Positions 14,926 through 44,741 of a stretch of DNA of 64,000 nucleotides are shown here, piece by piece. The notes beneath the pieces are model-generated. The model saw only the letters and a list, made by a program, of their open reading frames with translations. It searched no databases and was not told where the DNA came from. Positions within the stretch are counted from its first letter, which is position 1. Every line of letters starts with the position of its first letter. The stretch is from an uncultured Verrucomicrobiae bacterium (GTDB lineage Bacteria > Verrucomicrobiota > Verrucomicrobiia > Limisphaerales > JAFGQR01), in NCBI GenBank assembly GCA_963788655.1, contig CAWBHS010000102.1, positions 1 to 64,000 of the forward strand, given 5' to 3'. The translations under genes were made by a program, and so were the position numbers.

Positions 14926-17900
14926 TTAAGGCCACAACTTGGCGCGGTAAAAGCGTTCAGCGGTCCCATGCCAATCGGAAGCGGTAAAACGGAAGGAACC
15001 TCCGCTCACCGTATTCGTGGACAGCGTAGTCCAATGCACCAAGTCGGACGAGCTTTCCACGATCACCAACTGCCCGTCTGTTCCACCAACGTCGAATCCA
15101 AATCCATCCTCCCCCAGTCCAAAGCTGCCGTCGTTCATAAGGATTTTCGGCGCGGTTTGCGGGAAGGCGGGCAGCCGGCTTTCCACGAACCACTGCGCCT
15201 CCCCCGAGCCCACCACAAAGCCGCGCGCTCGCACAAAAGCATTCTCCGGGATGCCGCCATCCGGGCATTGCCAGCCTCCGGCGACACGGGTGCCGGCGCC
15301 CAGGCTGATCCAATTGAATCCTTCGGTCGAATACTCGAAGGTGGTCTGCCAGACTTCAGGACTGGTCCCCGATCGCTGCCACGTTACGGTCGAACCGTCG
15401 CGCGTTAGGCTCTGGTTGGCGGGTTCAGTGTTTTGGAGTCGCGCCAGAAACTTGCGCAACTGCCCGGCCACCGTATCGAACTGGCCACCTACCAGAACCT
15501 CTCCACCGGCCTGCACAGCCAGCGCATAAACGTAGCAGGACGAATTCACGTTTTCCACTTCGGGATTGAAGGTGGCGTCCAATGTCCCGTCTGCATTGAG
15601 CCGGCCAATTCGCCGGCGCGCCTGGCCGCCCAGGCTCACGAAATATCCACCCGCTAGAATTTTTCCGTCGGTCTGCGCGGACAGTGAATAGACCGGTTCG
15701 TCAGCGCCCGGATTGAATCCCATGTCCAACGTGCCGTCCGCATTCAATCGGGCAATCCGGCTGCGCGGCTCTCCGGCCAACTCGGTGAAATAGCCGCCTA
15801 CCAGAATCCTGCCATCCGGTTGCACTGCCACCGCACGTAGTGAACTGTTGGCATCCGGATCAAACTCGGAGTCCACCGTTCCATTGGCGTTCAACCGGAC
15901 AATACCGCGGCGCAATTGCCCGTCCACTTCGGTGAACGAACCTGCTGCCAAAATTTTCCCGTCAATCTGCAACGCCAGCGAACGCACTTGCGCATTGGCC
16001 GCCGTTTGAAAGTCCGAGTCCAGAGTGCCGTCAGCGTTCAGCCGGGCCAGGGATTGGTGTGGTTGGCCGTTCAAAATGGAAAAGTCACCGCCCACGACAA
16101 TCTTCCCGTCCGGTTGCAACGCCATGTTGTTCACGGCCCCGTCTGTTGAAGTCACCTGAAATCCTTCGTCGAAGGCTCCGTCAGCACTTACGCGGATCAG
16201 ACAAACGGTCTGGTCTTCACTCATTGGGGGAAACCAACCGCCCACGAGAATCTTCCCATCGGGCTGCACGACCAGGGAAAAGACCACTCCGCCGAGTTCT
16301 GGATTAAAGGTGGAATCCATCGCTCCATCAGGATTCAACCGGGCGAGGGCTGCTCGCGGTTGACTGCCCAACGTGGTGAAGGCCCCGCCCACCAGGATCC
16401 GACCGTCGGGCTGCACCGCCAGTGAATACACTATATTATCCGCTCCGGGATCAAATGCCGAATCCAGAACGGTCAGGTCCACGATCAATTGCGCCACCGC
16501 ACTGGTAACGCTGCCGTATTGGTTGGTAACCACCACCGAATACCAGCCCGTCTCGGCAGGTTGCAGGTTCGTCATCTTCAACACTGCCGCCGTAGCTTGG
16601 GCCAGGGGGACACTGTCTTTTAACCATTGGTAATACCGCGGTGCAGTACCTGCGGCACTCACATTAAAAGTGACTGTCTCACCAACGCTACGGTGCTGGC
16701 CCAAAGGCTGAGTGATGATGGCGGGTTCGATCACGGTCAACGTGGCCGCGTCGCTGGTGATGCTGCCCTGCGCGCTGACCACCACCACGCTGTAACTGCC
16801 CTCATCGGCTTTCAGGACGTTGCCCACGCTTAAGGTGGCTGTTTTCGCTCCGTTGATGTTCGCGCCGTCCAGCAATGGCAATCCGTCCTTGCGCCATTGA
16901 TACTCGAGCGGTCCGCTTCCGCTGGCCAGGACGCTGAACGTGGCGGTCGTGCCGGCGTCGTTGGTCCGATTGGCGGGTTGCACCACGACCACCGGCGCTC
17001 CCAGGTAAGCTTCCACAAAATAACTTGATGCGTTCCGCAAACCACCCGCAACGTAGCCTCGCGCGCGGATCGTTCCACCGCTCGGCAATTGAACTCCGGT
17101 CAGCTTCCAGCCATCCGGCACCCGCGAACCGCTGCCCAGGCTGCTCCAGGTGGTGCCATCCGTCGAGAGATCAAAGGACGTTCGCCAGACCTCCGGACTG
17201 GCGCCGCCCCGCAGCCACGTGAGCGCGTCGCCGTCGAACGTCAGGCTTTGGTTGGCAGGCGTTGGGTTGCTCAACCGGACCAGCCGCTGGCGGGTTTGCC
17301 CCGCCACCGTGTTGAAAGCTCCACCCACCAGAATCTTGCCGTCGGCCTGCAACGCCACCGCATAAACATCCGAGGAATACTCATAAACCTTGTAATAATA
17401 TGCCGGCTCCGGACCGAAGCCCGCATCGGGCGTCCCATCGACTTGCAATCGGCCCAGGTACCGGCGCGGTTGCCCTCCCAACTCAGTGAATCCGCCGCCC
17501 ACCAATATTTTTCCGTCGGCCTGCAACGCCAGAGACGTAACCGTGGAATTTGCACCCGGATCAAACTGCAGGTCCAGCGTTCCGTCCGCATTTAGACGGC
17601 CCAAAGAACCGCGCGGTTGTCCACCCAACTGCGTGAATCCGCCACCCACCAGAATCTTCCCATCCCCCTGGACTGCCAATATGCGGACGGGATTGTCAGC
17701 TTCCACGGTGAATGCTGAATCCGACGTGCCGTCTGGATTCAGTAGGGCCAGGTAGTAATGGCCCTGGCCACTTACCATCGAAAAATACCCGCCCACCAAA
17801 ATCTTGCCATCCGTCTGTAATGCCAGCGCATGGATAGAATCGTTGAACTGCGGACTAAACTCGGCATCCAACGTTCCATCGGCGTTGAGCCGAGCCAGCT

Positions 17901-20328
17901 TGCTGCGCGGCTGCCCGAGCATGTTGGAAAACCTGCCGCCGACCAAAATTTTGCCGTCGGCCTGCACGACCACCGACTCCACGTAACCGTCGGCTCTCGG
18001 ATCGAAAGCCTCGTCCAACGTGCCGTCGGCATTCAACCGGCCCAGATAGTTCCGCGGTTGCCCATTCAGCGTGGTGAAGTAACCACCCACCAGAATCCTT
18101 CCGTCGTTTTGCACGGCCAGGGAAATTACTTCTGGCAAGCCTCCGCCCTCCGCGCTGGCATTGAATTGCGCATCCACCGTTCCATCGGCGTTCAGCCGGG
18201 CAACGCGGTTGTGCGGTTCGCCGTTCATTTGGGTGAAGTAGCCACCCACCAAAATCTTCCCGTCCGCCTGCACCGCCAAGGAATAGACCGCATTATTTGC
18301 TGCCGCATCGAAACCAGTATCCAGTTCGGCAAGATTGATGGTGAGCAACGCCGGCGCACTGGTCACGCTGCCATAAATGCTGCTGACGACCACGGTGTAA
18401 TTGCCAATCGCGTGGTCTTGAAGGTTGGTGAGTTCAAGGATGGCGTTAGTGCCTTGCGCGAGCGGCACGCCGTCCTGGTGCCACTGGTAGCTCAATGGTT
18501 CAGACCCCACGGCCGAAACACTGAAGGTCACGCTTTCTCCCGGCTGCTTGGATTGGCTGACTGGTTGCGCGGTAATGGCGGGTTCGATCACCGTGAGTGT
18601 TGCCAGCGCACTGGTCACGCTGCCCCAGCCGTTGGTGACCACCACACTGTAACCGCCCATATCCCCGCCGAGGATGTTGCTCAGGATCAACGTGGACGTT
18701 TGGACGCCACCAATATTGCCCCCATCTGACAAGGCCACGCCGTCCTTGCGCCATTGGTAACCGACCGGTTCGCTCCCATTGGCCCGGACAGTGAAGGTAG
18801 CCGTGGTGCCGGCGGCGTTGGTGCGGTTGGCCGGCGGCGTCAAGACCACGGGCACTCCGGCGTAAGCTTCCACGTACCAGCCCGAGGCGTTATAATAACC
18901 ACCGCGCACCCAACCGCGCGCGCGAACCATCCACCCGGAAGGCAACACAACTTCACTCAGTTGCCAACCCCCTGTAACCCGAAAGCCATTCCCCAGCAAG
19001 GACCAAGTTACGCCGTCACTCGAGCACTCGAACGTCGTTCGCCAAATTTCGGGACCGGAACCGCTCCGCTGCCAGGTCAGGTTCACTCCGTCATACGCCA
19101 GGCTTTGCTCATACGGCTGGGTGTTGCGCAACCGGGCGATTCGGTTGCGTGGTTGCCCGCCCAACATGGTAAAAAGCCCCCCCGCCAGAATCCTGCCGTC
19201 AGTTTGCAGTCCTAGCGCGTCCACCTTAGAACCAGCCCCCAGCTCAAACTGGTCATCCAACGTGCCGTCCGCGAACACCCGCGCCAAGTGACTGCGCGGC
19301 TGCCCGCCCACCTCGGTAAATGTTCCGCCCAGCAGTATCTTACCGTCAGCTTGCACGGCCAGCGTGAACCCCGCAGCGTTGGCTGCGGGATTAAAATCAG
19401 TATCCAACGACCCGTCGGCATTCAACCGGGCGAAGTACCGTTGCGGCTGTCCCGCCAAGGTCGTGAAGTAACCCCCAATCAGCACTTTTCCATCTGCCTG
19501 CACGCTGATCGCAAGCACGGAAACATTGGGCTGTGGATTGAACGCAAAGTCCAAGGTACCATTCGCATTCAAGCGGGCGAGGTACTGGCGCGGTTGCCCA
19601 CCCACCAGGGTAAAACCACCGCACACCAATATCTTTCCGTCAGCCTGCAACGCCAGGGAGTACGCGGGACTGTTCAACACCGGATTGAATTCTGCATCCG
19701 CAGTGCCGTCGGCATTCAAGCGGGCAAGGTATTTGTGCGTCTGGCCTCCCAGGTTGGTGAAGCTGCCGGCGACAAGTATTTTCCCATCCGCCTGCATGAC
19801 CATTGATTTTACGTCACCACTCGCCTGGGGAGTGAAGGCTTCATCCAGCGTGCCGTCCGCAAGCAGCCGGGCGAGGTTGGTGCGCGGCTGCCCGCCCAGT
19901 GCGGTAAAACTGCCGCCGAGCAGTATCTTGCCGTCAGCCTGCAACGCCAGCGAGTTGACCTCGCAGGAGTGGGCGTAGCCTTCCACTCCCGGAACGAAAC
20001 TTGCATCCAAAGTCCCATCCGGATGCAACCGGCCAAGGCGGTTTCGCGGTTGGCCGTTGAGCGTGGTGAAGGTTCCGCCGACCACAATCTTTTCGTCCGG
20101 CTGCACAACCATCGCCAACACCTCGTCGTTGGCGCTTGGATCAAAGTCCGTATCCAGCGCGGCGAGGTTGACTGGCGACTGGGCCTGAACGACCGATACC
20201 AACACCCCCAACAGAACCGCCACGGCCGCCCCCGCGCCGCGGGATGGTCGCGCGAATTGAGATGGTTGCTGCGGAGTTGAAACACGGAGGTTCCCGGCGA
20301 CGACGATATGACTGCCTGGCTCGTTCAT
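14926..20328 (-). CDS. Large surface protein: three Delta-60 (DUF5122) beta-propeller modules separated by Ig-like domain pairs
   Basis: About 20 repeats of V.ALAVQ.DGKILVGG.FT...G..R..LARLN.DGTLD..F.P; Ig repeats (YQWRKDG...G.YSVVVTN..GSVTS); C-terminal VESSSDLVHWT...FYRA domain; hydrophobic N-terminus. Confidence 0.88.
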   Translation of the reverse strand: MNEPGSHIVVAGNLRVSTPQQPSQFARPSRGAGAAVAVLLGVLVSVVQAQSPVNLAALDTDFDPSANDEVLAMVVQPDEKIVVGGTFTTLNGQPRNRLGRLHPDGTLDASFVPGVEGYAHSCEVNSLALQADGKILLGGSFTALGGQPRTNLARLLADGTLDEAFTPQASGDVKSMVMQADGKILVAGSFTNLGGQTHKYLARLNADGTADAEFNPVLNSPAYSLALQADGKILVCGGFTLVGGQPRQYLARLNANGTLDFAFNPQPNVSVLAISVQADGKVLIGGYFTTLAGQPQRYFARLNADGSLDTDFNPAANAAGFTLAVQADGKILLGGTFTEVGGQPRSHLARVFADGTLDDQFELGAGSKVDALGLQTDGRILAGGLFTMLGGQPRNRIARLRNTQPYEQSLAYDGVNLTWQRSGSGPEIWRTTFECSSDGVTWSLLGNGFRVTGGWQLSEVVLPSGWMVRARGWVRGGYYNASGWYVEAYAGVPVVLTPPANRTNAAGTTATFTVRANGSEPVGYQWRKDGVALSDGGNIGGVQTSTLILSNILGGDMGGYSVVVTNGWGSVTSALATLTVIEPAITAQPVSQSKQPGESVTFSVSAVGSEPLSYQWHQDGVPLAQGTNAILELTNLQDHAIGNYTVVVSSIYGSVTSAPALLTINLAELDTGFDAAANNAVYSLAVQADGKILVGGYFTQMNGEPHNRVARLNADGTVDAQFNASAEGGGLPEVISLAVQNDGRILVGGYFTTLNGQPRNYLGRLNADGTLDEAFDPRADGYVESVVVQADGKILVGGRFSNMLGQPRSKLARLNADGTLDAEFSPQFNDSIHALALQTDGKILVGGYFSMVSGQGHYYLALLNPDGTSDSAFTVEADNPVRILAVQGDGKILVGGGFTQLGGQPRGSLGRLNADGTLDLQFDPGANSTVTSLALQADGKILVGGGFTELGGQPRRYLGRLQVDGTPDAGFGPEPAYYYKVYEYSSDVYAVALQADGKILVGGAFNTVAGQTRQRLVRLSNPTPANQSLTFDGDALTWLRGGASPEVWRTSFDLSTDGTTWSSLGSGSRVPDGWKLTGVQLPSGGTIRARGYVAGGLRNASSYFVEAYLGAPVVVVQPANRTNDAGTTATFSVLASGSGPLEYQWRKDGLPLLDGANINGAKTATLSVGNVLKADEGSYSVVVVSAQGSITSDAATLTVIEPAIITQPLGQHRSVGETVTFNVSAAGTAPRYYQWLKDSVPLAQATAAVLKMTNLQPAETGWYSVVVTNQYGSVTSAVAQLIVDLTVLDSAFDPGADNIVYSLAVQPDGRILVGGAFTTLGSQPRAALARLNPDGAMDSTFNPELGGVVFSLVVQPDGKILVGGWFPPMSEDQTVCLIRVSADGAFDEGFQVTSTDGAVNNMALQPDGKIVVGGDFSILNGQPHQSLARLNADGTLDSDFQTAANAQVRSLALQIDGKILAAGSFTEVDGQLRRGIVRLNANGTVDSEFDPDANSSLRAVAVQPDGRILVGGYFTELAGEPRSRIARLNADGTLDMGFNPGADEPVYSLSAQTDGKILAGGYFVSLGGQARRRIGRLNADGTLDATFNPEVENVNSSCYVYALAVQAGGEVLVGGQFDTVAGQLRKFLARLQNTEPANQSLTRDGSTVTWQRSGTSPEVWQTTFEYSTEGFNWISLGAGTRVAGGWQCPDGGIPENAFVRARGFVVGSGEAQWFVESRLPAFPQTAPKILMNDGSFGLGEDGFGFDVGGTDGQLVIVESSSDLVHWTTLSTNTVSGGSFRFTASDWHGTAERFYRAKLWP

Positions 20329-20597: not shown

Positions 20598-21089
20598 TTA
20601 CCGCCCCGCTGCCGCCGTGGCTTCGGCTTTTTCTTTGAGGGGGCGGAAGTTGCCTTCCTCGCAGCAGCGCACGAACAGTTCCGTAACCGATTTGAGATCC
20701 TCCCAACGAGCCCGGATGCTTTTGGATTCGCTAACACTGATTTGGTTGTCGGCGGCCGCCGTGGCGATGACGGACAGCAGGTCGGCAAACTCCTGGATGA
20801 TCTGGTTGGTGGCGGGAATCAGGTAATCGGGATGCGGATGGTTGGTCTTTGGATTGCGGATGAAGAATCCGCCCGCGCGTTGGCAAAGCCATTGCACGAT
20901 CCGTTCGTCGCCCGTGGAGCGCAATAAGGCTTCGATGCGGTCGAGCGGATTGACCGCGCCACTGCCGGCTTCCGCGTCCGGCGGCTCGGCCCATTTGTAG
21001 ATCATCGACAGCGAGAGACTCAGATCAGCGGCCACTTGTTTGGCGCTGGTCTTGTGAAAGACTTCCCGCAACAACTCGTGCGATTGCAT
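20598..21089 (-). CDS. Phage regulatory CII-like HTH protein (orphan)
   Basis: MQSHELLREVF...AKQVAADLSLSLSMIYKWAE (HTH), NPLDRIEAL, IVQWLCQRAGGFF and AAADNQISVSESKSIR. Confidence 0.65.
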   Translation of the reverse strand: MQSHELLREVFHKTSAKQVAADLSLSLSMIYKWAEPPDAEAGSGAVNPLDRIEALLRSTGDERIVQWLCQRAGGFFIRNPKTNHPHPDYLIPATNQIIQEFADLLSVIATAAADNQISVSESKSIRARWEDLKSVTELFVRCCEEGNFRPLKEKAEATAAAGR

Positions 21090-21265: not shown

Positions 21266-21474
21266 CCGCCGGGTTTTGGCGTGCGGCGGTTCTGCGCCGC
21301 TTTCGCACCGTCGCAGTCCGACCAACATCCGGCCGCCACTCCCTTCACGGAGCCGCGTTCGCCATTCGAAAGCGCCGGCAAGCCGGACGCACTCCAAACG
21401 CTGGCGCGACCTTGCTGCGCGCTCTGCCATACCTCGCGCCAGCGTTTGGAGCGTGGAGTTTGCTCCCGCTTTCG
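21266..21474. repeat. Palindromic element cluster, family D
   Basis: 21367-21408 is the reverse complement of 59937-59978 at 41/42 identity; further arms start at 21271 and 21435. Confidence 0.8.
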
Positions 21475-21507
21475 GGTGTCCAGGAACCCGATTGCTGCCA
21501 ACCAGGT

Positions 21508-21635
21508 GTGGCGCAGATTCTGCCGTATCGCGGATTTGCTGTCCGCAGAGCATGGGTAACTCCGAACGCCGCCGGAGCTGTGGCCACCTTGCCGAGTGCA
21601 ACTCGGCGAAACAGCAGAATAGAATTCTGCGTTAC
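21508..21635. repeat. Palindromic element, family C (copy 2)
   Basis: GTGGCGCAGATTCTGCCGTATCGCGGATTTG...TTGCCGAGTGCAACTCGGCGAAACAGCAGAATAGAATTCTGCGTTAC. Confidence 0.75.
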
Positions 21636-21673
21636 TCCTGGCGACGATTGCAGCGGCGGTCCACACTATCACA

Positions 21674-21712
21674 GATAACTGATCACTCGATTACTGATTA
21701 CTGTTCACTGAT
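21674..21712. repeat. Degenerate heptamer tandem array (ACTGATT-like)
   Basis: ataACTGATC ACTCGATT ACTGATT ACTGTTC ACTGATT; overlaps the TPR gene stop. Confidence 0.6.
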
Positions 21713-24700
21713 TCCTGCCTCCTGAACACGGCGGCCCCCAAGTGCGCCGGATGCAGTTCCAGGACTTTGGCAAACTGCTTCTTCGCCTCGGCAGCCTTCC
21801 CCTGCCCCAGCAACCCCAGGCCAATCAAATAATGGCTGTTGGCCTGCCGCACTCGCTCGGACTGTTTCTCGCCGAACTTGGCGAAGTAATCCGCAGTTTC
21901 GCCGCGGGTGAGTTGGGCTTCGCCCGCCTTCACCAATGCTTCGAACATCGACTGGGCGTCTGACTCGCGATCCAATTTCTGGAGCGCGCGAGCCTGATAG
22001 AAGGAGCTTTCGGAATCGCCGCGTCCACGACCTCGGCGGTTGCCACGATTGCTCGAACCTGCTGCCAGCTCGAACTGCTGCCGAGCTTGCTCCTTTTGGT
22101 CCATCGCTTCGTAGGCCAGCCCCAGATGATAGCGAATCTCCGGCTCATTGCTGTCCGAGCGCGGACGGCCAACCTCCAGGTTGGCCGGATACTCCAGCGC
22201 GGTGGTGAAGTCCTGGAGCGCATCAGCGAATTTCTTTTCCCGCATCCGCTTCTGGCCGCGTGCGAGCAAGGCGTCCGCATAGATGCCATGGATTTCGCTG
22301 CGGCCTTCCCAATTGTGAAATCGGTGCGTCGTAAGCAGTTCGACCGCCCGATCCAATTTGGCGGTGTCGCTCAGCCCGGCCACCGTCAACAGCACGATCT
22401 CGCGCGTGAGCGCGTCATCGCGTTTGGCCACGACATCATGATGGCGCGCGAGCATGTCCAAACGCTTGGCCACCGGAGCGCCGCCGGCTTCGTAAAGCCG
22501 GTCCAGTTCGTAGAAGTAACGCGGCTCGTTCGGGTCCAATTCGACGGCCTTCTCCAGGCTGGCGATGGCTTTGGGCACGTCATACTCATGCTGCGCGTAG
22601 GCGAGGGCGAGGTTGCGGTGGACCAACGGAGCGAGTGTGGTCAGCGGCCTTCTTTTCGAAGCGACTCCAGGCAGGAATCGCTTGCAGCGACATCTCCCAC
22701 GCTTTGATTGCTCGATCAGGCTGATTGTCATAGAGAAGGTCGCCCAGCAAATAGCAAGCAAGGGCATCGGATTCAGTGCCGTTGTTGGAGCAGTGCAAGA
22801 GAGGCAGCGCTTCGTATTGAAATGGGAAATCGAAATCCGCCGACGATTTCCGTGCCATCTCCAGCTCCTCACTGGGAGTGTCGTTACCGGCATTCTCTTG
22901 TCGAGCGCAATAGTCCGCGTAGTAATGGCGGAGCGCACTGGATCGGTCGCGGGGATCCCATAAGATTCCCAATGCGTCCAGGAAGCACCCGGCGTTGATG
23001 TAATCCATCGCCAATTCCAATCGTTGCTGCGGATGAACTATTAAGTGTGCCTCAACCCATCTTTGCAGATTCGTTTCTCCAAGGGCGACAAACCAAAGCG
23101 GTTCTTGGTTCGTAAAAACAATACTTCTGCTCAATACCAGTTCCACGCGCCCCCATGCGTCAAGCGGATCGATGCGCCACCGCGGCAGCAGCCGCTGGGG
23201 CCGCTTCGGCTGGTCGCTCAAGTCGTCGAAGGATGGCTGACTTCAGGTCCAACGATTTCGGGCTTTGATTGTTCAGTGATATCGAGCGTTCGACGTGGTC
23301 GAGTGCGCTTCTGAAATCGCTCCGCTGGCAATCAACTTCCGCCAGTTGCTCTTCACTGGCGGCCCGCCACGCTTCGGACCATGCGGCTCTTTCGAAGGCA
23401 TCTGCGGCAGCATCTAAATCGGCCTTCCAACGCTTTTTAAGCTCCGGCGCCGCAACGCCGCCCGGACGTTCAGCTTGATTCCGCAGAGCAACTCCCAGGT
23501 AATAATACGCCTCGCCATCCTTGGGCCGAATATGGTTCGCCGTGGCACGCGCGATGGCGTTACTCAGGTACTTTGCTGCTTCCGCCCAGCGCCATTGCTT
23601 GCAAAGTTCGATGCCCCTTGCCGTGTTGGCCCGATAATCACCGGGATCGCGACGCAGCATTTCCTCGTAATAAGGCGCCGCCTCGAATGACGGACTGAAC
23701 AGTTGTTCGATGCGCTGGCCGGTGAAGTATAGCTCGTCCGTGGTCGCATAATCTTCGGGTGCTTTGGGCCGCTCGACCGGCTTGGGCATCGGTGTCCCTT
23801 TGGGCTTGGCGGGCCGACCAGACTATAAGCTCGTGAAAATCCTGGTCATTGATTATCAGCTTCAAATCTTCCGGTGGCACGTTGTTCTCCAACGTAACAG
23901 TAGCCGTGAATGGTTTCGCCGGGCTGAGGTCCAGGGTTTGAGTGAAGAGCGCTTTCCATTCCTCCGTAGCAGCCGACGTCAGGAGGCGCTGACTTTCATT
24001 CGTAGCAGATGCTTGAGCCTCCTCACGTCGGCTGCTACGGACTTCCAATCGCACCGTCGCCCCTTTGAATTCCCTCGTTGCGTTCACCGCGATCTTCACC
24101 ACGCGATTGGTTGCCTCCAAGTTCACCGCCACGTCCCGCGTGCGCCGCTTTTACGCCCCCGAGGTTGCGGATCGGATACCACCAATGTTTCCACTCGCGC
24201 GTTTCGCCGGGCTGAATCCAACTGTAGTCCGGTTGGTTGTCCGACCATGCGCCCGCCATCAGTTCGAGATACGGGCCGTCATCATCAGTCAGGATTTGCG
24301 ACCACATTTCGCCTTGGGGACCATTGCCCCACTCGAAAAACTTTTTGCCCGGCGCCACGTTGTGATCCGAAACCTGGATCACGCCGGCCTCCTTGCCGTG
24401 ATCGTAGCCGCCGAACCAGTCGTCCTCGTAGTTCCACGCGAAGAACGACACCGGGTTGGGATGATTCTTCCACCAGGAAATATCCACGCCGCGACGGTAA
24501 TCGGTGCCGCCATAGATTTGGTGCGCGATCGGCCAGTTCGCAAATGCCGGCTTGGCGTGCTGGGCCGCCCATTCGGTCGAGGGCGGGAAGATGACCTGGT
24601 AATTCGTGTTCGCGTGGACGGCGGCGTTGATCCAAAAGAGCATCGGCCACGCGAACGGCGTTCGGTTGAACATTTTGCAGGTCAGTTCGAGATAACTGCG

Positions 24701-25261
24701 GTCCGGATAAAGCGTCATGCCCACGAGCCATTTCATCCGGTGGCGCAACTCGATTTCGCCCACCCAAATCGTGGCACTGCCGTCGGCGTTGGTTTGCGTG
24801 GTGTAATCGACCGGCGAGAAGCTCGTGGCGCGATGATGATGCGGCACGTTCCATTCGACCCCGCCGCTGATCCACGCGCCCAACATCCCGATGAGCGCCG
24901 GCTTGATGACGTGTTGGCGATAGAAGAAATCGTAGCCGTCGGTTTTGTCCACCGCGGAGAAAATCCGCCCGCCCAATTCCGGCAGGACGCAAATCTGGAG
25001 GTAATCATTTTCGAGAAACAGCGCCTTGTAAGTGACGTTGGACTTCACATCCGTGAGCACGTCCTGCACGGGATACGGATAAAACGTGGCCTTCGCGCCC
25101 TGGTACGTGCGTCCCTCGTAAAACCGCGGCACCGGCGACGGCGGCGCCGCCAGGTAGGTTGGGATGACGAGGTTCGTTTCCCAAAGGCGGACGGGAGCAG
25201 GGGCCGAATGGGCAAGCCAAGGAAACAAGGCAACAATCGCCAAGACGAATCTGGATTTCAT
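21691..25261 (-). CDS. Secreted DUF5107 + TPR-repeat protein (frameshifts near 24140, 23790, 23170 and 22640)
   Basis: Signal peptide MKSRFVLAIV; DUF5107 motifs LENDYLQICVLPELGGRI, WISGGVEWN and GPYLELMAG; TPR helices continue through ORFs 23638..24132, 23160..23789, 22586..23221 and 21691..22938. Confidence 0.8.
23966..24038. repeat. GTAG-REP doublet, family B, inside the DUF5107/TPR coding sequence
   Basis: GTAGCAGCCGACGTCAGGAGGC...GCCTCCTCACGTCGGCTGCTAC; read on the minus strand as RSSRREEAQASATNESQRLLTSAAT. Confidence 0.85.
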
Positions 25262-25534
25262 GATGCTGCGATTGCTAACAGGCTTTGCATGCAGCCGCAA
25301 TGTTCAAAACGGGCGAGGGCGAATGGTGTGCAGACATCTTGTCCGCTCTACGCGTTCGGCTTACAACCGAAGGCACGAAGAAAACGTGGAGGTGCCCAGC
25401 GACGAGGATTCACTTGAACCGCGAATGGAAACCAATCAAAACCGGCCGTTCGAATCGCTTACTTCACCGCCAAGGCACGAAGAGCGCAAAGAACGTGGTG
25501 CCTTGGCAAGCATCTTTGCGCTCTTCGTGGCTTA

Positions 25535-25728
25535 GCCGTATCAATTCAGTAGCTGGTGCTGCGATGAGGCAGTTCGGCGTGGTAGGACAGGCGTCTCGCC
25601 TGTCTCGAATAGCCCAAGGCATCCTCACCGTTTGGTGACATAGAAATACTCGCGGCGCCGTGATACAAGTTGTTGGTTTGCACTCGTTCGGGACAGGCGG
25701 GACGCCTGTCCTACTGAATAGTCACGGC
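25535..25728. mobile_element. 194-bp MITE with 18-bp TIRs and TTA target duplication, carrying a family A REP doublet
   Basis: GCCGTATCAATTCAGTAG (25535-25552) vs CTACTGAATAGTCACGGC (25711-25728); TTA at 25532-25534 and 25729-25731. Confidence 0.7.
25582..25714. repeat. GTAG-REP doublet, family A (copy 1)
   Basis: GTAGGACAGGCGTCTCGCCTGTC...GGACAGGCGGGACGCCTGTCCTAC. Confidence 0.85.
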
Positions 25729-25804
25729 TTAGCGGTGAATCAGGCCGTTCGCCCGCAGCCATGACCTTGGATAATGGATTTCACTTGATCCGCGCCTTGC
25801 GTGA

Positions 25805-26080
25805 TCAACGCGAACGAGAGGATGCCTTCGCAGCACGCTCATCCATGATCTCCTTGAACATTTGTTCGGCGTCGGCGTCAGCGTCGGTTACTGGCGAGCC
25901 CGGATCAGCCTCCATTTCCGCAAGCCGCTGAAGGATTTCGCTCTCTTGCGCACGCACCAGGACCGAAGGTTGCTCGATTTCGTCGCGGTGTTCGTCCACC
26001 CAGCGGGTGAATGCCCGCCGCTCCGCCAGCGAAAGGGCGAGCACTTGTGATACTTGTTCACAGGCCGGTGTGAACAACCT
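25805..26080 (-). CDS. Small protein resembling a putative addiction-module (antitoxin) component; start unclear, possibly degraded
   Basis: QVLALSLAERRAFTRWVDEH...QESEILQRLAEMEADP is typical of addiction-module antitoxins. Confidence 0.45.
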   Translation of the reverse strand, partial: RLFTPACEQVSQVLALSLAERRAFTRWVDEHRDEIEQPSVLVRAQESEILQRLAEMEADPGSPVTDADADAEQMFKEIMDERAAKASSRSR

Positions 26081-26129
26081 CCAACAACCTTCGATTGACA
26101 ATCGTCCCCGCCGGTTAAGCATTGAATGC

Positions 26130-28912
26130 ATGTCGCAAAAAACCGCAAAAGCTTCTCGTAAGACCGAACTGGCCGTTCCAGCGGCGCACAATTGGAACAC
26201 GACCGACGACGATGAGATCAATCGCCGCCGCCAGCGCGCCCGCACGGAGTCCTTCGCCATTGCCAACACCGATGCCCGGCATCCCATCTTCTCGAACTTC
26301 CAGGTCAAGTCCGGCAGCGGTTTGAAATATTCCGTCGAAGTCCGCGACCTAGCCCAGCGCCAGTTTGGGTGTGATTGCGTGGATTTTCGCATCAACGGAC
26401 TGGGCACCTGCAAGCACGCCGAGGCGGTGCTGAATTACTTGGAAGCCCGGTACCGGCGCTTGTTTCGCGCCGCCGCGCAAAACGGTTCGAGCCGACTAGA
26501 CATTGTCCCGGACGCGGCGGCGGACACGCTGCGGCTAATGCGCAACGGCAAGGCCCTGCCGCGGTCACTCCAGGAATGGTTCAATGCCGACGGCCAGCTC
26601 CTCGGAGGTTCGCCGGAAGCCGCGGTGGAGCAATTGAGCCGGGTGAATCTGCCCAGCCTCCGGATTTCGCAGGAGGTGGCGCCGTGGCTGGCGGCGCGTC
26701 TTCAAGCGGCCGAACGGAAGGAACTGCGCCGCGAATACGAATTGAAGGTTCAATCCGGCGAATGGCCGCCGCACGAAACGTTGGTGCCGCTGTTCCCCTA
26801 TCAGCGTGAGGGCATGTTGCACCTGGCGTTCACCGAGCGGGCGCTGCTTGCCGATGAAATGGGCCTCGGGCAAGACGATCCAGGCCATTGCCGCGTGCGC
26901 GTTGTTGCACCGGTTGGGCAAGGCGCAACGCGTACTCGTGGTCACCCCGGCGTCGCTCAAGACCGAATGGGAGGAACAAATTCAGCGGTTCACCGATGCG
27001 ACCGTATCAATTGGTTTGACGGGCCGCGCCACCAGCGTTTGCAGGCGTATGCCAATCCGCCGTTCTTCACCATCGTGAATTACGAGCAGATGATGCGCGG
27101 ACGCACTCGACGTGAATGAGCGGCTGCGCCCCGACGTGATTGTGTTGGACGAAGCCCAGCGCATCAAGAATTGGAACACCAAAACCACGCAAGCCATCAA
27201 GCGCCTGCGCAGCCGCTACGCGTTCGTGCTGACCGGCACGCCCATCGAGAACCGCATCGATGAGCTGTATTCGCTGATGGACTTTCTGAATCCCTCGCTG
27301 CTCGGACCGCTGTTCCGGTTCAATCGCGACTTTTACGTGCTCGATGAACGGGGCCGTCCGGCAGGTTACCGCAACCTGGCCCAACTTCATTCCCGGATTC
27401 AACCTTACATGTTGCGCCGCCGCAAAGTGGACGTGGAAACCGAGTTGCCCGACCGCACTGATCGGACCCACTTCGTGCCGTTGAGCGACGAACAACAAAC
27501 GGCTTACGAAGACCATGAAGCCGCCGTGGCGCGCCTGGCGTCCATTGCCAAACGGCGTCCGTTGCGGCAGCAGGAGCAGGACAAACTCATGCGCGAACTG
27601 GCGATGATGCCGGATGGTGTGCGACTCGAACTACATCCTCGATCCGGAATCCCGCGCGTGCCCCAAACTGGAGGAACTGGAGAAGATTCTCGAAGAATGC
27701 CGCGGCAACGGGGACGTGAAGGTCATCATTTTCTCCGAATGGGAACGCATGCTCGAACTGGCGCGGGAGCTTTGCGAGCGGATGAATCTCGGGTTTGCCT
27801 GGCACACCGGCAGCGTGCCGCAACGCCGGCGGCGCGCTGAAATCAACGTCTTTAAAACTGATCCGGAATGCCGCGTTTTTCTCAGCACCGATTCGGGCAG
27901 CACCGGTTTGAATCTCCAGAACGCCAGCGTGGTGATCAATTGTGATCTGCCGTGGAACCCGGCCAAACTGGAGCAGCGCATCGCCCGCGCCTGGCGCAAA
28001 CATCAAACCCGGGCCGTGACGGTCATCAATTTGGTATCCGAGAAGACCATTGAACACCGGATGTTGGGCACCCTGGCCGACAAACGGGCGTTGTCCGACG
28101 GCGTGTTGGATCTCCAAGGCAACCTGGGCGAGATCAAGCTGCGCAGCGGACGGCAGGCATTCCTGGCCAAGCTCAACCAGCTCATGGCGCCGGCGGCGGG
28201 TGCGTCAAGCTCGACCGTTCCCGAGGCCGAACGCCCGGCGCCCCTGCCCGCCGACCGCGCACTGGCGTTTGCGCAGAAAGCCCACCGGCTCATCAATGGC
28301 GCGTTGGTGCGTTGCGAGGAACGTTACCCGCGCGAAGGTGCCCATTCCGTGCTGCTCGCGGTGGTCGATAAGGACGCTGCGCAATGGCGCGAACGTCTGA
28401 CGGAGGTACATCAGGAGTTGTTTGGTGAGGGCAAATCCGATCCGTTGGCGCCGGTGCAGATCGAAGTCATTGACCGGGCCACGCACGAAGCTCTGGAACG
28501 ATTGATGGCCGCCGGCTTGATCAATTCGACCATGCGCGCCAGCCGGCCGCTCTTCCCGGCAGAGGAAAGTTCCGCGTCAGCTCAACCGCTTTCCGATGAA
28601 GAACGCACCCAAGTTGCGGCGCATCGTCAGCAGGCGGCGCGCAAACTCAAAATGGGACGCTTGCTGGGTCAGGGCGATTTATCCGAGGAAGCCCGTCCCG
28701 CGCTACTGGAAGCAATTCATTGCCTCGGCCGGGCGGCGGCGGTCGAAAACCGCCTGCCGGAGCCATCCACGCTGGATGATGCGTTGCGGCCACCGGTTTC
28801 CCAATCGTGGGGCGCCGGGGCATCGGTGCTGCGCGGTTACGCGTCCGACACGAACACGCCCTGGCAAGCGGTGGTGGAGATGCTCGACGCCCAATTGGTC
28901 GCGCAACCGTAG
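26130..28912 (+). CDS. SWIM zinc finger + SNF2/DEAD-box helicase (frameshifts near 26868, 27000, 27100 and 27610)
   Basis: CDCVDFRINGLGTCKH (SWIM), LFPYQREG, LADEMGLG/KTIQA, LDEAQRIKN, LTGTPIEN, STDSGSTGLNLQ and PWNPAKLEQRIAR. Confidence 0.88.
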
Positions 28913-41000: not shown

Positions 41001-41347
41001 TCACGGTGCGCACGCGGTTCCGGCGCTGGCCGAAGAACCCACCTTCCGAAGCGGTCCCGAGTCCCTTCAAGCCAGGCGATCTGCTGGTGATTGCCGAGGT
41101 GCAGGACAATGGCACCGGGATTGCCGCGGAAGTGCTGCCGATGATCTTCGAACCGTTCTTCACCACCAAACCCATGGGCGTGGGCACCGGGCTGGGTCTG
41201 GCGGTCATCAAGAACATCATCGACTTGCACGGCGGGACCATTGAAGTTACAAACGTTCCGGAAGGTGGCGTTTGCGTCACCCTCGCGCTGAAAGTTCAGC
41301 AGGGGACAACATTTTATGAGCAAGAAGCGGATTTTACTCGTGGATGA
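38021..41347 (+). CDS. Cytoplasmic hybrid sensor kinase (REC-PAS-GAF-PAS-PAS-PAS-HisKA-HATPase)
   Basis: LLVEDN receiver; PAS/PAC repeats ending DITERK; AGVAHEVKNPL, NLFMNAIHAM, DNGTG and FFTTKPMGVGTGLGL. Confidence 0.92.
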   Translation: MAKSPINVLLVEDNLEFAKRLESSLKALPGQPLRLAACGQLAEARKVLASSQTVDAVLLNLNLPDSQGLETLRQVREQAPGLPVVVVTASEDEALALEALRAGAQDYLFETEANARTVTRSVGYAIERGRGEQALRESEQRFKRLLQSTTDYIFSVTVANGRATSTCHGPGCFGVTGYSLEEFEADPYLWYRLIHEADRSRVTALVARILAGETVPQFEHRILHRDGSVRWIRNTSVLHKDAQGRLIGYDGLITDITERKRAERLLTFEHSVNRELTRTDTLPEVLARVFPVLCDGQPWELGAYWIADAQAGVLRFSGIGYDATGQMNQLLELDRSFTFAPGAGLLGRVWAQGEPSWIADLAKETDCPRAGFVGQLGLHGACAFPVAWGKERFGILELFCRRIIASDEPLMLALGGVGSQIGQFIDRRRSQEALAAERNLLRTLIDNLPDYVYVKDTESRFLINNLAHLCVLGAPLKQQVVGKSDLDFFPREQALQFLADDQAVLSSGQPLINHEEQVVDADGKPHWVLATKVPLRDHQGQVMGLVGISRDITGRKQAEDEKRLTETRLQAILDNSPAVIYLKDTRGRYLLINHRYEELFRIRREDIVGKTDYEVFPKEAADLFRANDQRVLQAQGPLKFEEVAPHDDVPHTYISVKFPLVDVAGKPYGVCGISTDITDRKQAEQALAESQERLELVIQGSNDGIWDWSIAANRVYYSPRWKSMLGYTDDEIENTFSSWEMLLHPEDRTRALAAVQSYFAGQSTAFELEHRLRHKDGTYRWILARGVALRDAEGRPLRMAGSHVDLTEHKQKEEQLRQAYEELSKNQERLRQTLDRLRGAHRELKSAQQQLIQAEKLKSIGKLAAGVAHEVKNPLQTILMGITFLNNNLAGKEATVTMVLSELRTAVERADSIIHELLQLSAATRITVKTVEFNTVVERALAMMHLMFDETHVQVVRELASGLPELQLDPSRMEQVFTNLFMNAIHAMPGGGVLTVRTRFRRWPKNPPSEAVPSPFKPGDLLVIAEVQDNGTGIAAEVLPMIFEPFFTTKPMGVGTGLGLAVIKNIIDLHGGTIEVTNVPEGGVCVTLALKVQQGTTFYEQEADFTRG

Positions 41348-41702
41348 TGAAGTCGGATTTACACGGCTGTTGAAGCTCAACCTCGAACAAACCGACCAAT
41401 ACGAGGTTCAGGTGGAAAACACCGCCATGGGTGCCTTGAACCACGCCGTCGATTTTCAGCCGCATTTGATCCTGCTGGACGTGATCATGCCCGCCATGGA
41501 CGGGGGCGAATTGGCGACCCGCCTGAGCACCAAAGCGAAACTCAAAGGTGTGCCAATTGTGTTTTTGACGGCTGCGGTGAAGAAGGAGGAAGTCAGTTCC
41601 CACGGCGGCGAGATTGGCGGTTATCCGTTCATTGCGAAGCCGGTTGATCTGCCGCAGGTGATTGCCTGCATCGAAAGCCACTTGGGCCAGAAACCGGTGT
41701 GA
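41316..41702 (+). CDS. Single-domain response regulator
   Basis: ILLVDDE, LLDVIMPAMDG, FLTA and IAKP. Confidence 0.92.
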   Translation: MSKKRILLVDDEVGFTRLLKLNLEQTDQYEVQVENTAMGALNHAVDFQPHLILLDVIMPAMDGGELATRLSTKAKLKGVPIVFLTAAVKKEEVSSHGGEIGGYPFIAKPVDLPQVIACIESHLGQKPV

Positions 41703-41716
41703 CGCCACAGTTCATC

Positions 41717-41742
41717 GTAGCGGCGCCTCGGCAGAACGCCGC
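41717..41742 (+). repeat. GTAG-REP flanking the RAYT
   Basis: GTAGCGGCGCCTCGGCAGAACGCCGC, an imperfect hairpin with a GTAG foot. Confidence 0.8.
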
Positions 41743-41749
41743 ACTCTTC

Positions 41750-42175
41750 ACTCCTTGGAAGCTATGGCCCTACTGGGACTTTCCTCCCGTTCCCGCACAT
41801 ATAGATCTCAAAACTCCTTCCAGAAATCCTCGATCAGCGGGTGCATCCACGGGCAGCCGGGCACCATTGCGCCCAAATAAGGCCACTCGTGTGGATGGTT
41901 CACCAAACCTGCGCGCCGGGGATTATCGAGCACGTAGAAGCACGTCCGTTCAAACGCCCCACGCAAACGGTTTTTCTCCCGTAGCACGCTGTCATGCGAT
42001 TGCTTTTGCAACTCGAATTCCGCCCCAGCAGACGAGCGACGAGCGAGTTCTGCTGCCAGATGCTTTCGGATAAAACGACTGGCCAGACGCTGGTCGCTTC
42101 GGACACGCATTCCCATCCAGACTACGTGCAGATGATCCGGCATACGCACATAAACCGGACAGAAGAGGCTCTGCC
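41750..42175 (-). pseudogene. Truncated REP-associated tyrosine transposase (RAYT/TnpA-REP, Y1 HUH)
   Basis: LFCPVYVRMPDHLHVVW (HUH), LQKQSHDSVLR and YVLDNPRRAGLV...EWPY. The N-terminus is replaced by a REP, and a TGA at 41808-41810 may be premature. Confidence 0.75.
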
Positions 42176-42222
42176 GCCGCTACGCCGCCATGAACCGTAG
42201 CGGCGCCTCGGCAGAGCGCCGC
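42168..42222. repeat. Truncated inverted REP plus full REP flanking the RAYT
   Basis: GCTCTGCCGCCGCTAC (42168-42183) and GTAGCGGCGCCTCGGCAGAGCGCCGC (42197-42222). Confidence 0.8.
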
Positions 42223-42427
42223 CAATTAATGCGGTTTTCTCCCTCAAAAGCCTCGACGGAATCGCATTCTCCACCGACGGGCAATTCCCCGGTTCGTAGC
42301 ATTGGAGCAAGACTTTCTTGATCACACCTTTACCCGGCGCAAATCCACTCGAGTGTAACTGGCTCCTGACCCAAGCGTGACTTTCTTCTGGGAGGTTCGC
42401 CCGTGAAGTGGAGTTAGAGGCCGCTTG

Positions 42428-42823
42428 TCAGCAGATCGTCGGCACATGGGGATAGCCACGGATCTTACCGTCGGTCGTCACGAGCGTCAGGCGCTCCAGC
42501 CGTGCGGTTGCGATGAGCAAGCGATCTGCCGGGTCGTGGTGAATGGGCGGTGGCAGGCTGTAAGCCTCGGCCATGATTTCTGCGGTGATGGGCAGACAAG
42601 GCCACTCGGTTCGCTTCAACAAAGCAGCCCACCAGAGGCGCCAGTGTTGTTTAAGCACGATCTTCCGGCGTTCCTGCAAGCAGGCCAGTTCCGCCACGGA
42701 GATCGCCGAGACAACGACCTCCCCCGCCGGTGCTGCGTCAATCAGCGCCAGTGTAGCCGGGGTGAGGTCGGGCGTTTTCTCCGCAGTGAACAGGACAGCG
42801 CAAGTATCGAGGAGAAATGGCAT
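42428..42823 (-). CDS. vapC: VapC PIN-domain toxin
   Basis: FLLDTCA, VSAISVAEL, HHDPADRLLIATA and LVTTD. Confidence 0.9.
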   Translation of the reverse strand: MPFLLDTCAVLFTAEKTPDLTPATLALIDAAPAGEVVVSAISVAELACLQERRKIVLKQHWRLWWAALLKRTEWPCLPITAEIMAEAYSLPPPIHHDPADRLLIATARLERLTLVTTDGKIRGYPHVPTIC

Positions 42824-42830
42824 GGCAGCA

Positions 42831-43079
42831 TCACTTAAGCATCTCCCAGTCTTCCTCGGGAATTGCTGGCCCCGTGAGGTCGCCTTTAATTCGAACCGTG
42901 CCTTTCATGCAACCTACGACGTGGCGCTTGGATTTCCGCGGAGTGGGTTTGCGGATTGGTTCGACGCGGGCCAGCGGCACGTTGCGACGGCAGACGATTA
43001 CCTCTCCCCCCTGTTCCACCAACGCGAGGAACTCAGAAACCCGGTCTTTGAATTCAGCGATGTTAACCGTTCTGCTCAT
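42831..43079 (-). CDS. Phd/YefM-family antitoxin
   Basis: MSRTVNIAEFKDRVSEFLALVEQGGEVIVCRRNVPLARVEP. Confidence 0.88.
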   Translation of the reverse strand: MSRTVNIAEFKDRVSEFLALVEQGGEVIVCRRNVPLARVEPIRKPTPRKSKRHVVGCMKGTVRIKGDLTGPAIPEEDWEMLK

Positions 43080-43115
43080 GGCCAGAAAGATGGCCATGTT
43101 CCAGGCTAAATGCAA
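43077..43115 (-). promoter_or_regulatory. TA promoter with palindromic operator
   Basis: Minus strand TTGCAT-17 nt-CATCTT-7 nt-ATG; inverted repeat CATGGCCA-N6-TGGCCATG (43077-43098) covers the -10 and start codon. Confidence 0.55.
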
Positions 43116-43214
43116 GACTTGATTGGAGGGCACTTGGGGCGCGGCCAGCGTTTTCACAGCGGTCTCCTCACATTACGATTGCTTCATCGGCTCGCATACC
43201 ACTAGGTTTCGCGC

Positions 43215-44741
43215 ATGAAAAATCTCCGGTCTATTTTTACCATCGCCACGGTTGCCGCCACGCTATGGTTGAGCAGCAGCCTGGCGCACGCCTTGAATCT
43301 GCCGCGCATTTTCTCCGACAACATGGTACTCCAGCGGGACGCGCCCGTAAAGGTGCGGGGGTGGGCCGATCCTGGACAGAACGTGACCGTTGCTTTTGCG
43401 GGGCAAACCAAAAAGGCCCAGGCCGGCGCGGACGGTAAATGGATGGTCACTCTCGACCCGTTGGCCGCGAATGCCGAAGCCGGCGAGATGGTGGTTGCAG
43501 TGGCGGGGCAAACGATTGCCATCAAGAATATCCTCGTGGGCGAAGTCTGGATTTGTTCCGGGCAATCCAACATGGAGTTCACTCTGGGCGCCACCCACAA
43601 TGCGAAGGAAGTCATCGCTACTGCCAATCTGCCGTTGATCCGGCAGTTCAAAGTGCCGCACGTTACGCAGACCAAGCCGCAGCGAGATCTCCCGGGAGAC
43701 TGGGCCGTGTGCTCGCCGCAAACTGCGCCGAATTTCACGGGAGTAGGCTTCCACTTCGGACTGCAATTGTTCAAAAAACTCAACGTGCCGATCGGGCTCA
43801 TTAATTCGTCCTGGGGCGGCACCCGCATCGAGCCGTGGACCGATCGGGAGGGCTTCAAAGTGTCGCCCAAGTTGAAAGATATTTCCGCTTTCGTGGCCAG
43901 TGCGGACGAGGTCCATCGCCGGAACGTAGCCGCCTGGCTGGACCAGATCGAACCCTGGCTCAAACAGAGCCGTGCCGCACTCGACCACGGCGAAGACATT
44001 CCCGCGTTACCCGGCCAGATGCCGGAGCATCCGCTCAAGAATCCCGGGCGCCCCACGTCCATTTACAACGCCATGATTGCGCCGCTGATCGGTTATGGCA
44101 TCCGTGGCGCTATTTGGTATCAGGGCGAAAGCAATAATGGCGAGGGCAGGTTGTATTTTGAGAAGATGAAAGCGCTGATCGGTTCCTGGCGGCGGCTCTG
44201 GGCGCAGGGAGACTTTCCGTTCCTCTATGTGCAGCTTGCGCCGTATCGGTATAACAATCCCGCGGCCCTCCCGGCCATTTGGGAAGCGCAACTCGCGTCC
44301 TTGTCGATCCCCAACACCGGCATGGCCGTGATCACCGATATTGGCAACGTGTCCGACATTCACCCCCGCAATAAGGAAGAAGTCGGCCGGCGGCTCTCAC
44401 TGTGGGCGCTGGCAAAAACTTACGGTGTGGACGGGCTGGAGTATTCCGGGCCGCTGTACAAATCGATGAAAGTGGAAGGAAACCAAGCCGTGCTGACGTT
44501 CGATCACGCCGAGGGCTTGAAGTCGCTGGATGGGAAGCCGCTCTCCTGGTTTACCGTTGCCGGCGACGACAAAAACTTCGTCGAAGCCAAGTCAGAGATT
44601 GTGGGCAACACCGTCGTGGTGAGCAGCGACGCGGTGAAAAGTCCGGTTGCCGTTCGTTTTGGTTGGAACGAAACCGCTGAGCCGAACTTGGCCAACGGCG
44701 CGGGTCTGCCCGCTTCGCCGTTTCGCACGGACCCGTGGTAA
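43215..44741 (+). CDS. Sialate O-acetylesterase (SASA) family protein
   Basis: FSDNMVLQR, GEVWICSGQSNM, WGGTRIEPW, WYQGESN and DIHPRNK. Confidence 0.92.
   Translation: MKNLRSIFTIATVAATLWLSSSLAHALNLPRIFSDNMVLQRDAPVKVRGWADPGQNVTVAFAGQTKKAQAGADGKWMVTLDPLAANAEAGEMVVAVAGQTIAIKNILVGEVWICSGQSNMEFTLGATHNAKEVIATANLPLIRQFKVPHVTQTKPQRDLPGDWAVCSPQTAPNFTGVGFHFGLQLFKKLNVPIGLINSSWGGTRIEPWTDREGFKVSPKLKDISAFVASADEVHRRNVAAWLDQIEPWLKQSRAALDHGEDIPALPGQMPEHPLKNPGRPTSIYNAMIAPLIGYGIRGAIWYQGESNNGEGRLYFEKMKALIGSWRRLWAQGDFPFLYVQLAPYRYNNPAALPAIWEAQLASLSIPNTGMAVITDIGNVSDIHPRNKEEVGRRLSLWALAKTYGVDGLEYSGPLYKSMKVEGNQAVLTFDHAEGLKSLDGKPLSWFTVAGDDKNFVEAKSEIVGNTVVVSSDAVKSPVAVRFGWNETAEPNLANGAGLPASPFRTDPW

Follow-up and report, generated by a model that had tools for sequence, protein, structure and literature searches.

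How one gene comes to keep conserved ends around a middle part of low GC content and divergent sequence is the question raised by a DUF5107-TPR gene in the window, the whole stretch of 64,000 nucleotides from an uncultured Verrucomicrobiae bacterium that was analysed here. The low-GC segment lies directly downstream of a REP element inserted in frame. The original prediction, made from the sequence alone, held that the segment may have been produced by targeted hypermutation linked to the REP and resembling the action of a DGR, with segmental recombination named as an alternative. The answer depends on whether the segment is real, on how its variation is distributed among relatives of the gene, and on whether the REP has any part in it.

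The low-GC segment and its gene

The five hand counts of GC given in the original prediction (26, 29, 30, 40 and 41 of 60) are exact, and the drop is borne out by computed GC3, which is 0.59 over 22625-23965 (428 codons) and 0.74 over the gene's remaining 708 codons (Fisher p=2.7e-7), with total GC at 56.3% and 60.1%, respectively. In a changepoint scan the best low segment is 24051-22663 (GC3 0.58 vs 0.75, log-likelihood ratio 18.1, against a maximum of 10.4 in 200 permutations), and of the genome's 591 intact long ORFs only 4 have an internal GC3 drop this strong. Two of the other four strongest drops of the genome are at the C-terminal tip of an Rhs protein and in the C-terminal portion of a restriction-modification methyltransferase; Rhs tips and the C-terminal parts of such methyltransferases are swapped modules. 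The strongest internal drop of the genome scan is found in an esterase-glycoside hydrolase-like fusion ORF (C21:33868-36408), with a low-GC3 stretch of 0.40-0.48. The segment had been described as beginning at the REP. The best-fitting start, 24051, and the REP are indeed 10 bases apart; this start is, however, placed no more closely than 24385-23675, an interval that also contains the end of the DUF5107 domain at ~24143. The described lack of stop codons holds along the coding path in the frameshift-aware alignment, which shows only the four breaks of Table 1 and no further out-of-frame stretch that could cause the low GC3. At fourfold sites both A and T rise in the window's module (A 0.18, T 0.21), compared with A 0.047 and T 0.07 in the flanks.

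The gene is split into five pieces because of four +1 frameshifts. Its product belongs to the DUF5107-TPR family, in that Pfam finds PF17128 followed by TPR repeats, and is probably an exported protein, judging by the N-terminal residues. The domain and fold are those of known DUF5107 (PF17128) TPR proteins such as BDI_1685 (PDB 5cd6). In the model of an intact relative (L133, mean pLDDT 86), strands extend to about residue 460 and helices lie beyond; the DUF5107 part of the relative's model is a galactose-mutarotase-like beta-sandwich with Foldseek matches to 5cd6, 3mwx and 4bze. Apart from 5cd6 and galactose-mutarotase-like folds, the Foldseek matches are mostly to generic TPR proteins.

Table 1. 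Features of the DUF5107-TPR gene and of its immediate surroundings in the window.
Feature	Position	Strand	Basis and remarks
DUF5107-TPR gene	21691..25261	-	~1190 codons; six-frame reading, Pfam, tblastn of orthologues, frameshift-aware alignment
Signal-peptide-like N-terminus	25200..25261	-	By reading the sequence alone
DUF5107 domain	24143..25190	-	Pfam E 1e-61; conserved backbone, 94% to nearest orthologues, GC3 0.76
+1 frameshift 1	24135..24145 (~24139)	-	Frameshift-aware alignment; probable assembly error
Small beta-sandwich (second variable module)	23800..24141	-	Secondary structure of relative's model, tree, identities
GTAG-type REP doublet	23963..24041	.	In frame, in a loop; old insertion, site common to L026, L126 and L127
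+1 frameshift 2	23805..23820 (~23811)	-	Frameshift-aware alignment; probable assembly error
Conserved anchor (first TPR helices)	23490..23799	-	79% to close orthologues, GC3 0.65
Hypervariable middle TPR module	22700..23489	-	Singleton allele, GC3 0.55-0.56; right limit uncertain, 22780-22626
~17-residue insertion marking the insert allele class	23424..23476	-	Alignment, insert lengths
+1 frameshift 3	23165..23180 (~23171)	-	Frameshift-aware alignment; probable assembly error
+1 frameshift 4	22622..22635 (~22630)	-	Frameshift-aware alignment; probable assembly error
C-terminal TPR region (backbone)	21691..22625	-	65-69% to nearest, GC3 0.75
Heptamer run (ACTGATT-like)	21668..21712	+	Dispersed repeat of the genome
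GGAG-type REP doublet and further palindrome	21367..21620	.	Behind the gene; no link to module found

Allele classes of the middle module

Relatives were sampled as 80 genome loci, 80 metagenome loci, 80 proteins and 32 further stretches. Full or nearly full genes were kept (67, then 112, 182 and 210 rows), and partial genes of fewer than 850 residues, genes with X, L077 and exact duplicates were dropped. The nearest related loci carry the titles Verrucomicrobiota or Limisphaerales. Identity of the window to 14 close orthologues is 86% in DUF5107, 79% over 23799-23490, 24-40% over 23489-22626 and 61% in the C-terminus. The segment is thus divergent over ~23490-22700, but the predicted divergence does not extend over the stretch in front of it; still further upstream, 23965-23800 is as variable in the window as in any of the 14 orthologues (38% vs 35%). 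The claim that the protein has been diversified locally is supported.

Pairs of relatives show such divergence as well. L029 and L047 are 98% identical in DUF5107 and 83% in the C-terminus, with 31-42% in the middle depending on the alignment; the values are 97%, 82% and 35% for L022 and L024, and 94%, 81% and 34% for L027 and L133, and each of the latter two pairs shares its gene order. DNA similarity is lost over the same two tracts in all three pairs, while the flanks and neighbouring genes are 79-94% identical. The limits of the tracts recur in the three pairs, with the right limit varying between motifs.

We defined close pairs as those at least 88% identical in DUF5107 and at least 78% in the C-terminus, and module classes by single linkage at 55%. 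Module identity is bimodal among the 136 close pairs inside the clade, which are not independent of one another and come from a protein sample partly drawn with a divergent allele as query: 96 are below 50%, one is at 50-60% and 39 are at 60% or more. Outside the clade the family differs in showing no module switching, none of 42 close pairs being below 60% in the module. The 53 close homologues fall into 18 module classes, namely a common class of 26, five small classes and 12 singletons, one of which is the window. Mean identity over 23450-22910 is 0.28-0.46 inside the clade, compared with 0.39-0.52 in 25 distant family members, and the flanks of the clade are far more conserved. Greater diversity of the middle TPR part between close relatives than over the remaining family points to a putative binding site for a partner, substrate or phage.

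Divergent modules fit the family profile poorly (0.41-1.10 bits per column, against a mean of 1.95 for ordinary distant members) and keep 54-76% of its conserved columns (median of 88% for ordinary distant members). At positions where the common class has acquired new residues, they retain the old ones of the family. Of the 29 columns by which the common class is distinguished, the window keeps the family-wide residue at 13 and has that of the common class at 5, which argues that its module is not a mutated common allele. The minority classes also have the lower GC3: the shift of the module is -0.129 in 11 divergent alleles and -0.024 in 9 common alleles (p=0.003; L132 and P0065, kin of L031 and L211, omitted), and the anchor between the two tracts is shifted in the same direction (-0.074 in divergent vs -0.013 in common alleles, p=0.03). 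Over all 68 first sequences the GC3 shift is only weakly related to best module identity (Spearman 0.17, p=0.16), and the contrast is confined to the clade.

Conflict between module and flank phylogenies, and rates within classes

The starred groups of the module tree are the common class (99), L024 with P0073 (100) and the core of the insert-bearing alleles (96-99). Three sister pairs of the backbone are rejected by the module tree (AU p 8.4e-6, 3.6e-9 and 3.5e-4). The same sisters are grouped by the DUF5107 and C-terminal trees, which for their part reject the module clades (p 1e-4, 5.9e-5, 7e-11 and 5e-49); all these values are for groups chosen once the identity tables or the other tree had been seen, and for trees obtained by quick searches. 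A quick mixture-model tree retains the starred groups. The window's own branch is unstarred, and its tie to the insert class is the ~17-residue insertion together with the motif FPFQ.E.

The small beta-sandwich gives a further view of the window's gene. A distinct beta-sandwich is common to 9 of 11 insert-type proteins, the exceptions being P0008 and the window. In the window this part is of the common, REP-bearing type (61-64% identical to L126 and L127, 35% to L022). As it has no insert-type beta-sandwich, the window's gene would itself be recombinant, combining the common REP-bearing beta-sandwich with a singleton insert-type TPR module.

Carriers of one and the same divergent allele can be close throughout the gene, as are L133 and P0003 (97-99% across the gene) and L132 and P0053 (99-100%). 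In L029 and P0011, the module is 82% and the C-terminus 80% identical. Between L031 and L132 the module has a pS of 0.27, against 0.15-0.25 elsewhere, and a dN/dS of 0.32; between P0065 and L211 the module has a dN/dS of 0.15 and a synonymous distance like that of the flanks. These comparisons of coding sequence show a module that, within a class, evolves at the rate of its flanks and under purifying selection. Exchange is also seen inside the common class, where L126 and L127 differ by a swap (pS 0.60 vs 0.20-0.34).

Origin of the divergent modules

The number of classes, the conflict between module and flank trees and the recurring tract limits favour the alternative named in the original prediction, segmental recombination; to these the evidence adds a normal rate within classes and lower GC3 in minority classes. 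We consider it probable that the gene is a mosaic, in which old allele classes of the module have been exchanged by homologous recombination at conserved flanks. The middle TPR module, and separately the small beta-sandwich, would persist across genera as many old and very different allele classes. Homologous recombination in the end of DUF5107, in the first TPR helices and in the FP..E and LLYDNQP motifs would be what moves the module, or its flanks, between lineages, with the result that close relatives come to have unrelated middles. Selection for variety, exerted by a changing binding partner, substrate or phage, may keep the classes. Poor fit to the family profile indicates that import from an ordinary homologue is insufficient and that faster evolution is also required; the long branches and lower GC3 of divergent alleles, and the lack of a donor in the searches below, likewise tell against exchange as the whole explanation. 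Rare classes may evolve faster and drift towards AT because they are held in few copies and seldom recombine with a like copy. Bacterial mutation is AT-biased, and GC3 is linked to recombination in bacteria.

The best placed of the other explanations, which we nevertheless regard as improbable, is acceleration specific to lineages with little exchange, the module having lost constraint or come under positive selection and drifted to AT, and the groupings in the trees being long-branch artefacts. The end branches of divergent modules are indeed ~1.0, compared with 0.006-0.08 in DUF5107, the poor profile fit is in keeping with it, and in some pairs of the insert class the module is faster than the C-terminus (66% vs 82% in P0065/L211 and 61% vs 82% in L022/P0004). 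However, synonymous sites of L022 and L024 are saturated in the module (pS 0.70) and not in the flanks (0.26), the insertion and motif are common to at least four backbones, and the short-branched common class, too, is scattered over the flank trees. Module identities that are bimodal rather than graded, and dN/dS of 0.15-0.32 within classes, likewise speak against it.

Sources for the window's module were sought among sequences in and beyond its genome. A donor or close relative was not found, the best match being 36% identical in a search of longer proteins and 44-45% among the aligned set. This result counts against the mosaic reading, as do the window's unstarred branch, the shifted GC3 of the anchor and the best start of the low segment beside the REP. 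Paralogues were rejected as donors, as the two other DUF5107-TPR subfamilies are only 19-35% identical to the module. In a search of the window's own genome and 5 others for stand-alone module cassettes, all but one of 13 matches fall within DUF5107-TPR genes or pieces of them, the exception being a weak match (E 9e-5) in a 494-residue frame. The 14 neighbourhoods read from ORF starts have no evident neighbour gene or element in common. One paralogous DUF5107-TPR gene, on C74 at ~41200-44200 (L124), itself has a middle very divergent from two sampled orthologues, with GC3 of 0.60-0.61 vs 0.69-0.71; its subfamily, of three sequences only, has a comparable dip (85-91% in DUF5107, 44-48% in the module).

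Many singleton alleles and no donor pool are also what would be expected if new module alleles were made by episodes of local hypermutation without a template, and recombination merely spread them. Bursts of AT-ward substitutions and indels in the motif-bounded module would then build up a pool of singletons, spread across genera as a putative specificity code for partners or phages. Both this account of the origin of alleles and such a code seem to us quite unlikely. The joint rise of A and T at fourfold sites, the AT shift of the conserved anchor and a segment identity lower inside the clade than in the sample of the remaining family fit the account, but close carriers of an allele show no excess change, divergent alleles keep old family residues and not those of their sisters, and the neighbourhoods share no gene or element.

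An artefact of assembly or decay of a pseudogene in the window's genome alone is hardly more credible, in spite of the frameshifts. There are four in 3.6 kb of the gene, compared with 16 in 66.7 kb sampled elsewhere (0.24 per kb; 11 of them +1, clustered in 8 of 56 loci), and the assembly that contains the window (115 contigs, 86% complete) has 5.6% contamination. Next door, a SWIM/SNF2 helicase gene (window 26130-28912) has at least four frame changes. Such clustering, with the four changes in the SNF2 gene, points to patchy sequencing indels, and the four +1 frameshifts are probably assembly errors; some long-read data are biased to insertions. Indels of this kind would not, however, account for an AT shift at silent sites. 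The same pattern is found in intact orthologues of independent assemblies, the coding path is free of stops, and the segment is still predicted to fold as helices (pLDDT 77 for 180 residues of the module, 23170-22631).

The in-frame REP and the search for a DGR

The in-frame REP itself is real (-31.7 kcal/mol, z -7.9). It is a doublet of the GTAG type, with two inverted GTAG-tagged palindromes and many copies in the genome, where its arm pattern has 255 matches. L026, L126 and L127 carry the identical REP, inserted at the same base, and all three have the common module and ordinary GC3. A census of 18 genes (the state of L031 taken from a protein alignment), nine with common and nine with divergent alleles, found the doublet in 6 and 2, respectively; two more divergent alleles have one arm, and the divergent segment occurs with no REP in five (L022, L029, L047, L129 and L133). 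The one-sided drop that would be expected in other REP-containing genes is not seen, the mean GC3 change over 22 in-ORF hits being -0.002, with 10 of the 22 negative. Of 14 other in-ORF doublets, two have a downstream GC3 drop of at least 0.15, compared with 2.1% of 5000 random sites. One of these is in what its motifs suggest to be a frameshifted HsdR read out of frame, and the other in a probable methyltransferase with a low-GC C-terminal part, identified by its motifs and by weak methyltransferase matches. There are 12 Y1 transposase matches in the genome, one of which has a single arm of the window's REP family within 900 bases. On the mosaic reading, the REP would be no more than a passenger, carried in a loop that tolerates insertions. 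Different REP families (GTAG and GGAG) are inserted in frame at this same loop, at 24041-23963 of the window and in L024, L025, L027 and L028, which suggests a site that is tolerant of insertion or perhaps favoured for it.

In the assembly, which is 86% complete, neither blastn (best E 0.23) nor a scan of 60-base windows with adenines as wildcards (0 candidates) brought up a template for the window's module. The genome does hold a DGR of the HRDC type on C26 at ~23200-27700 (L123 171-4640), with an FGE/C-type lectin target, an HRDC gene, a frameshifted reverse transcriptase and a template, and 28 of its 46 template-target mismatches are at template adenines. This template matches four other places, none of them in the window; those on C78, C39 and C55 are weaker and may represent remote targets. 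The absence of a template for the module in these searches, the rise of A at fourfold sites and the FGE targets of the C26 DGR speak against a DGR-like origin of the segment. The genome has 13 matches to reverse transcriptases in all, of which the C26 and C43 loci were covered by reading their ORFs and C50 by a repeat search. Some are multi-copy with equal scores and lengths (C39, two on C60, C68 and C107; and C46, C99 and C44), and these reverse transcriptases of 441-505 residues probably belong to recently spread group II introns, as judged by length and copy number.

Mutation targeted to the sequence behind the REP, by HUH/RAYT nicking or a DGR-like system, is largely refuted and the least likely explanation: the best start of the low segment beside the REP, the Y1 transposases and DGR of the genome and the two dropping doublets speak for it, but among orthologues the REP occurs without the divergent segment and the segment without the REP, other in-frame REPs bring no drop on average, the two doublets lie in an out-of-frame HsdR and a methyltransferase C-terminal part, close carriers of one divergent allele show no more difference in the module than in its flanks, and A rises from 0.05 to 0.18 with no template found.

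Relation to known systems

Exchange of modules is in itself well known, and what appears to be new is its occurrence in DUF5107-TPR proteins. The literature searched, on mosaic TPR genes and Verrucomicrobia REPs (main texts, mostly open-access), contains no description of polymorphism or exchange of DUF5107 modules. The nearest parallel is given by the target recognition domains of restriction-modification systems (Type III mod and Type I hsdS), alleles of which are described as exchanged by recombination in the flanks (PMC3575425). Very different alleles of one internal domain, conserved flanks and flank recombination are the points of likeness with the systems outlined there. Unlike those domains, the module lies in the TPR solenoid of a probably exported protein, has classes that span genera, and showed no movement from one paralogue to another or from site to site within the gene. 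DGRs, as they are characterized in PMC5758913, are similar in producing local variation within a coding gene, and this genome has one; their change is adenine-specific, whereas here it is not, no template was found, and the tract is ~800 bases long, in mid-gene and with indels. The target is also different, being a helical TPR region and not a lectin or Ig fold near the 3' end (PMC5758913).

The REP itself has close counterparts in the in-frame intragenic GTAG REPs of Verrucomicrobia described for Opitutus terrae (PMC3733652). From that description the two agree in being in-frame doublets of 20-30 residues in a tolerant loop, and we see no difference of note. The portion of the Opitutus terrae account drawn on here reports no effect of a GTAG REP on flanking mutation (PMC3733652), and none was found in the present comparison. 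The analysis as a whole removes a tempting case of REP-linked hypermutation. Read as a mosaic gene, the locus would instead mark the DUF5107-TPR protein as one under long-lasting pressure to vary, and it provides natural chimeras of this protein for testing.

Other repeats and neighbouring genes

The heptamer array and further palindromes reported at the end of the gene do exist (Table 1). The heptamer run is absent from the first 110 bases past the stop in the 14 orthologues, and no link to the module was found. It has 11 regex matches on 7 contigs, and similar ACTGATT-like arrays are dispersed over the window, C39, C4, C18, C31, C58 and C97, one on C39 having ~19 units. On the other side of the gene, at 25530-25735, is a 203-base element around a GTAGGACAG REP doublet. 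Of 223 candidate copies 40 were scored, and all 40 match over the full length (84-100%); the element looks to have spread recently as a unit. Immediately behind the DUF5107-TPR gene, at 20598-21089, is a gene for a phage CII-like (CP76) regulator, and beyond it, at 14926-20328, an intact gene encodes an exported protein of 1800 residues with 49-residue repeats and Ig-like domains.
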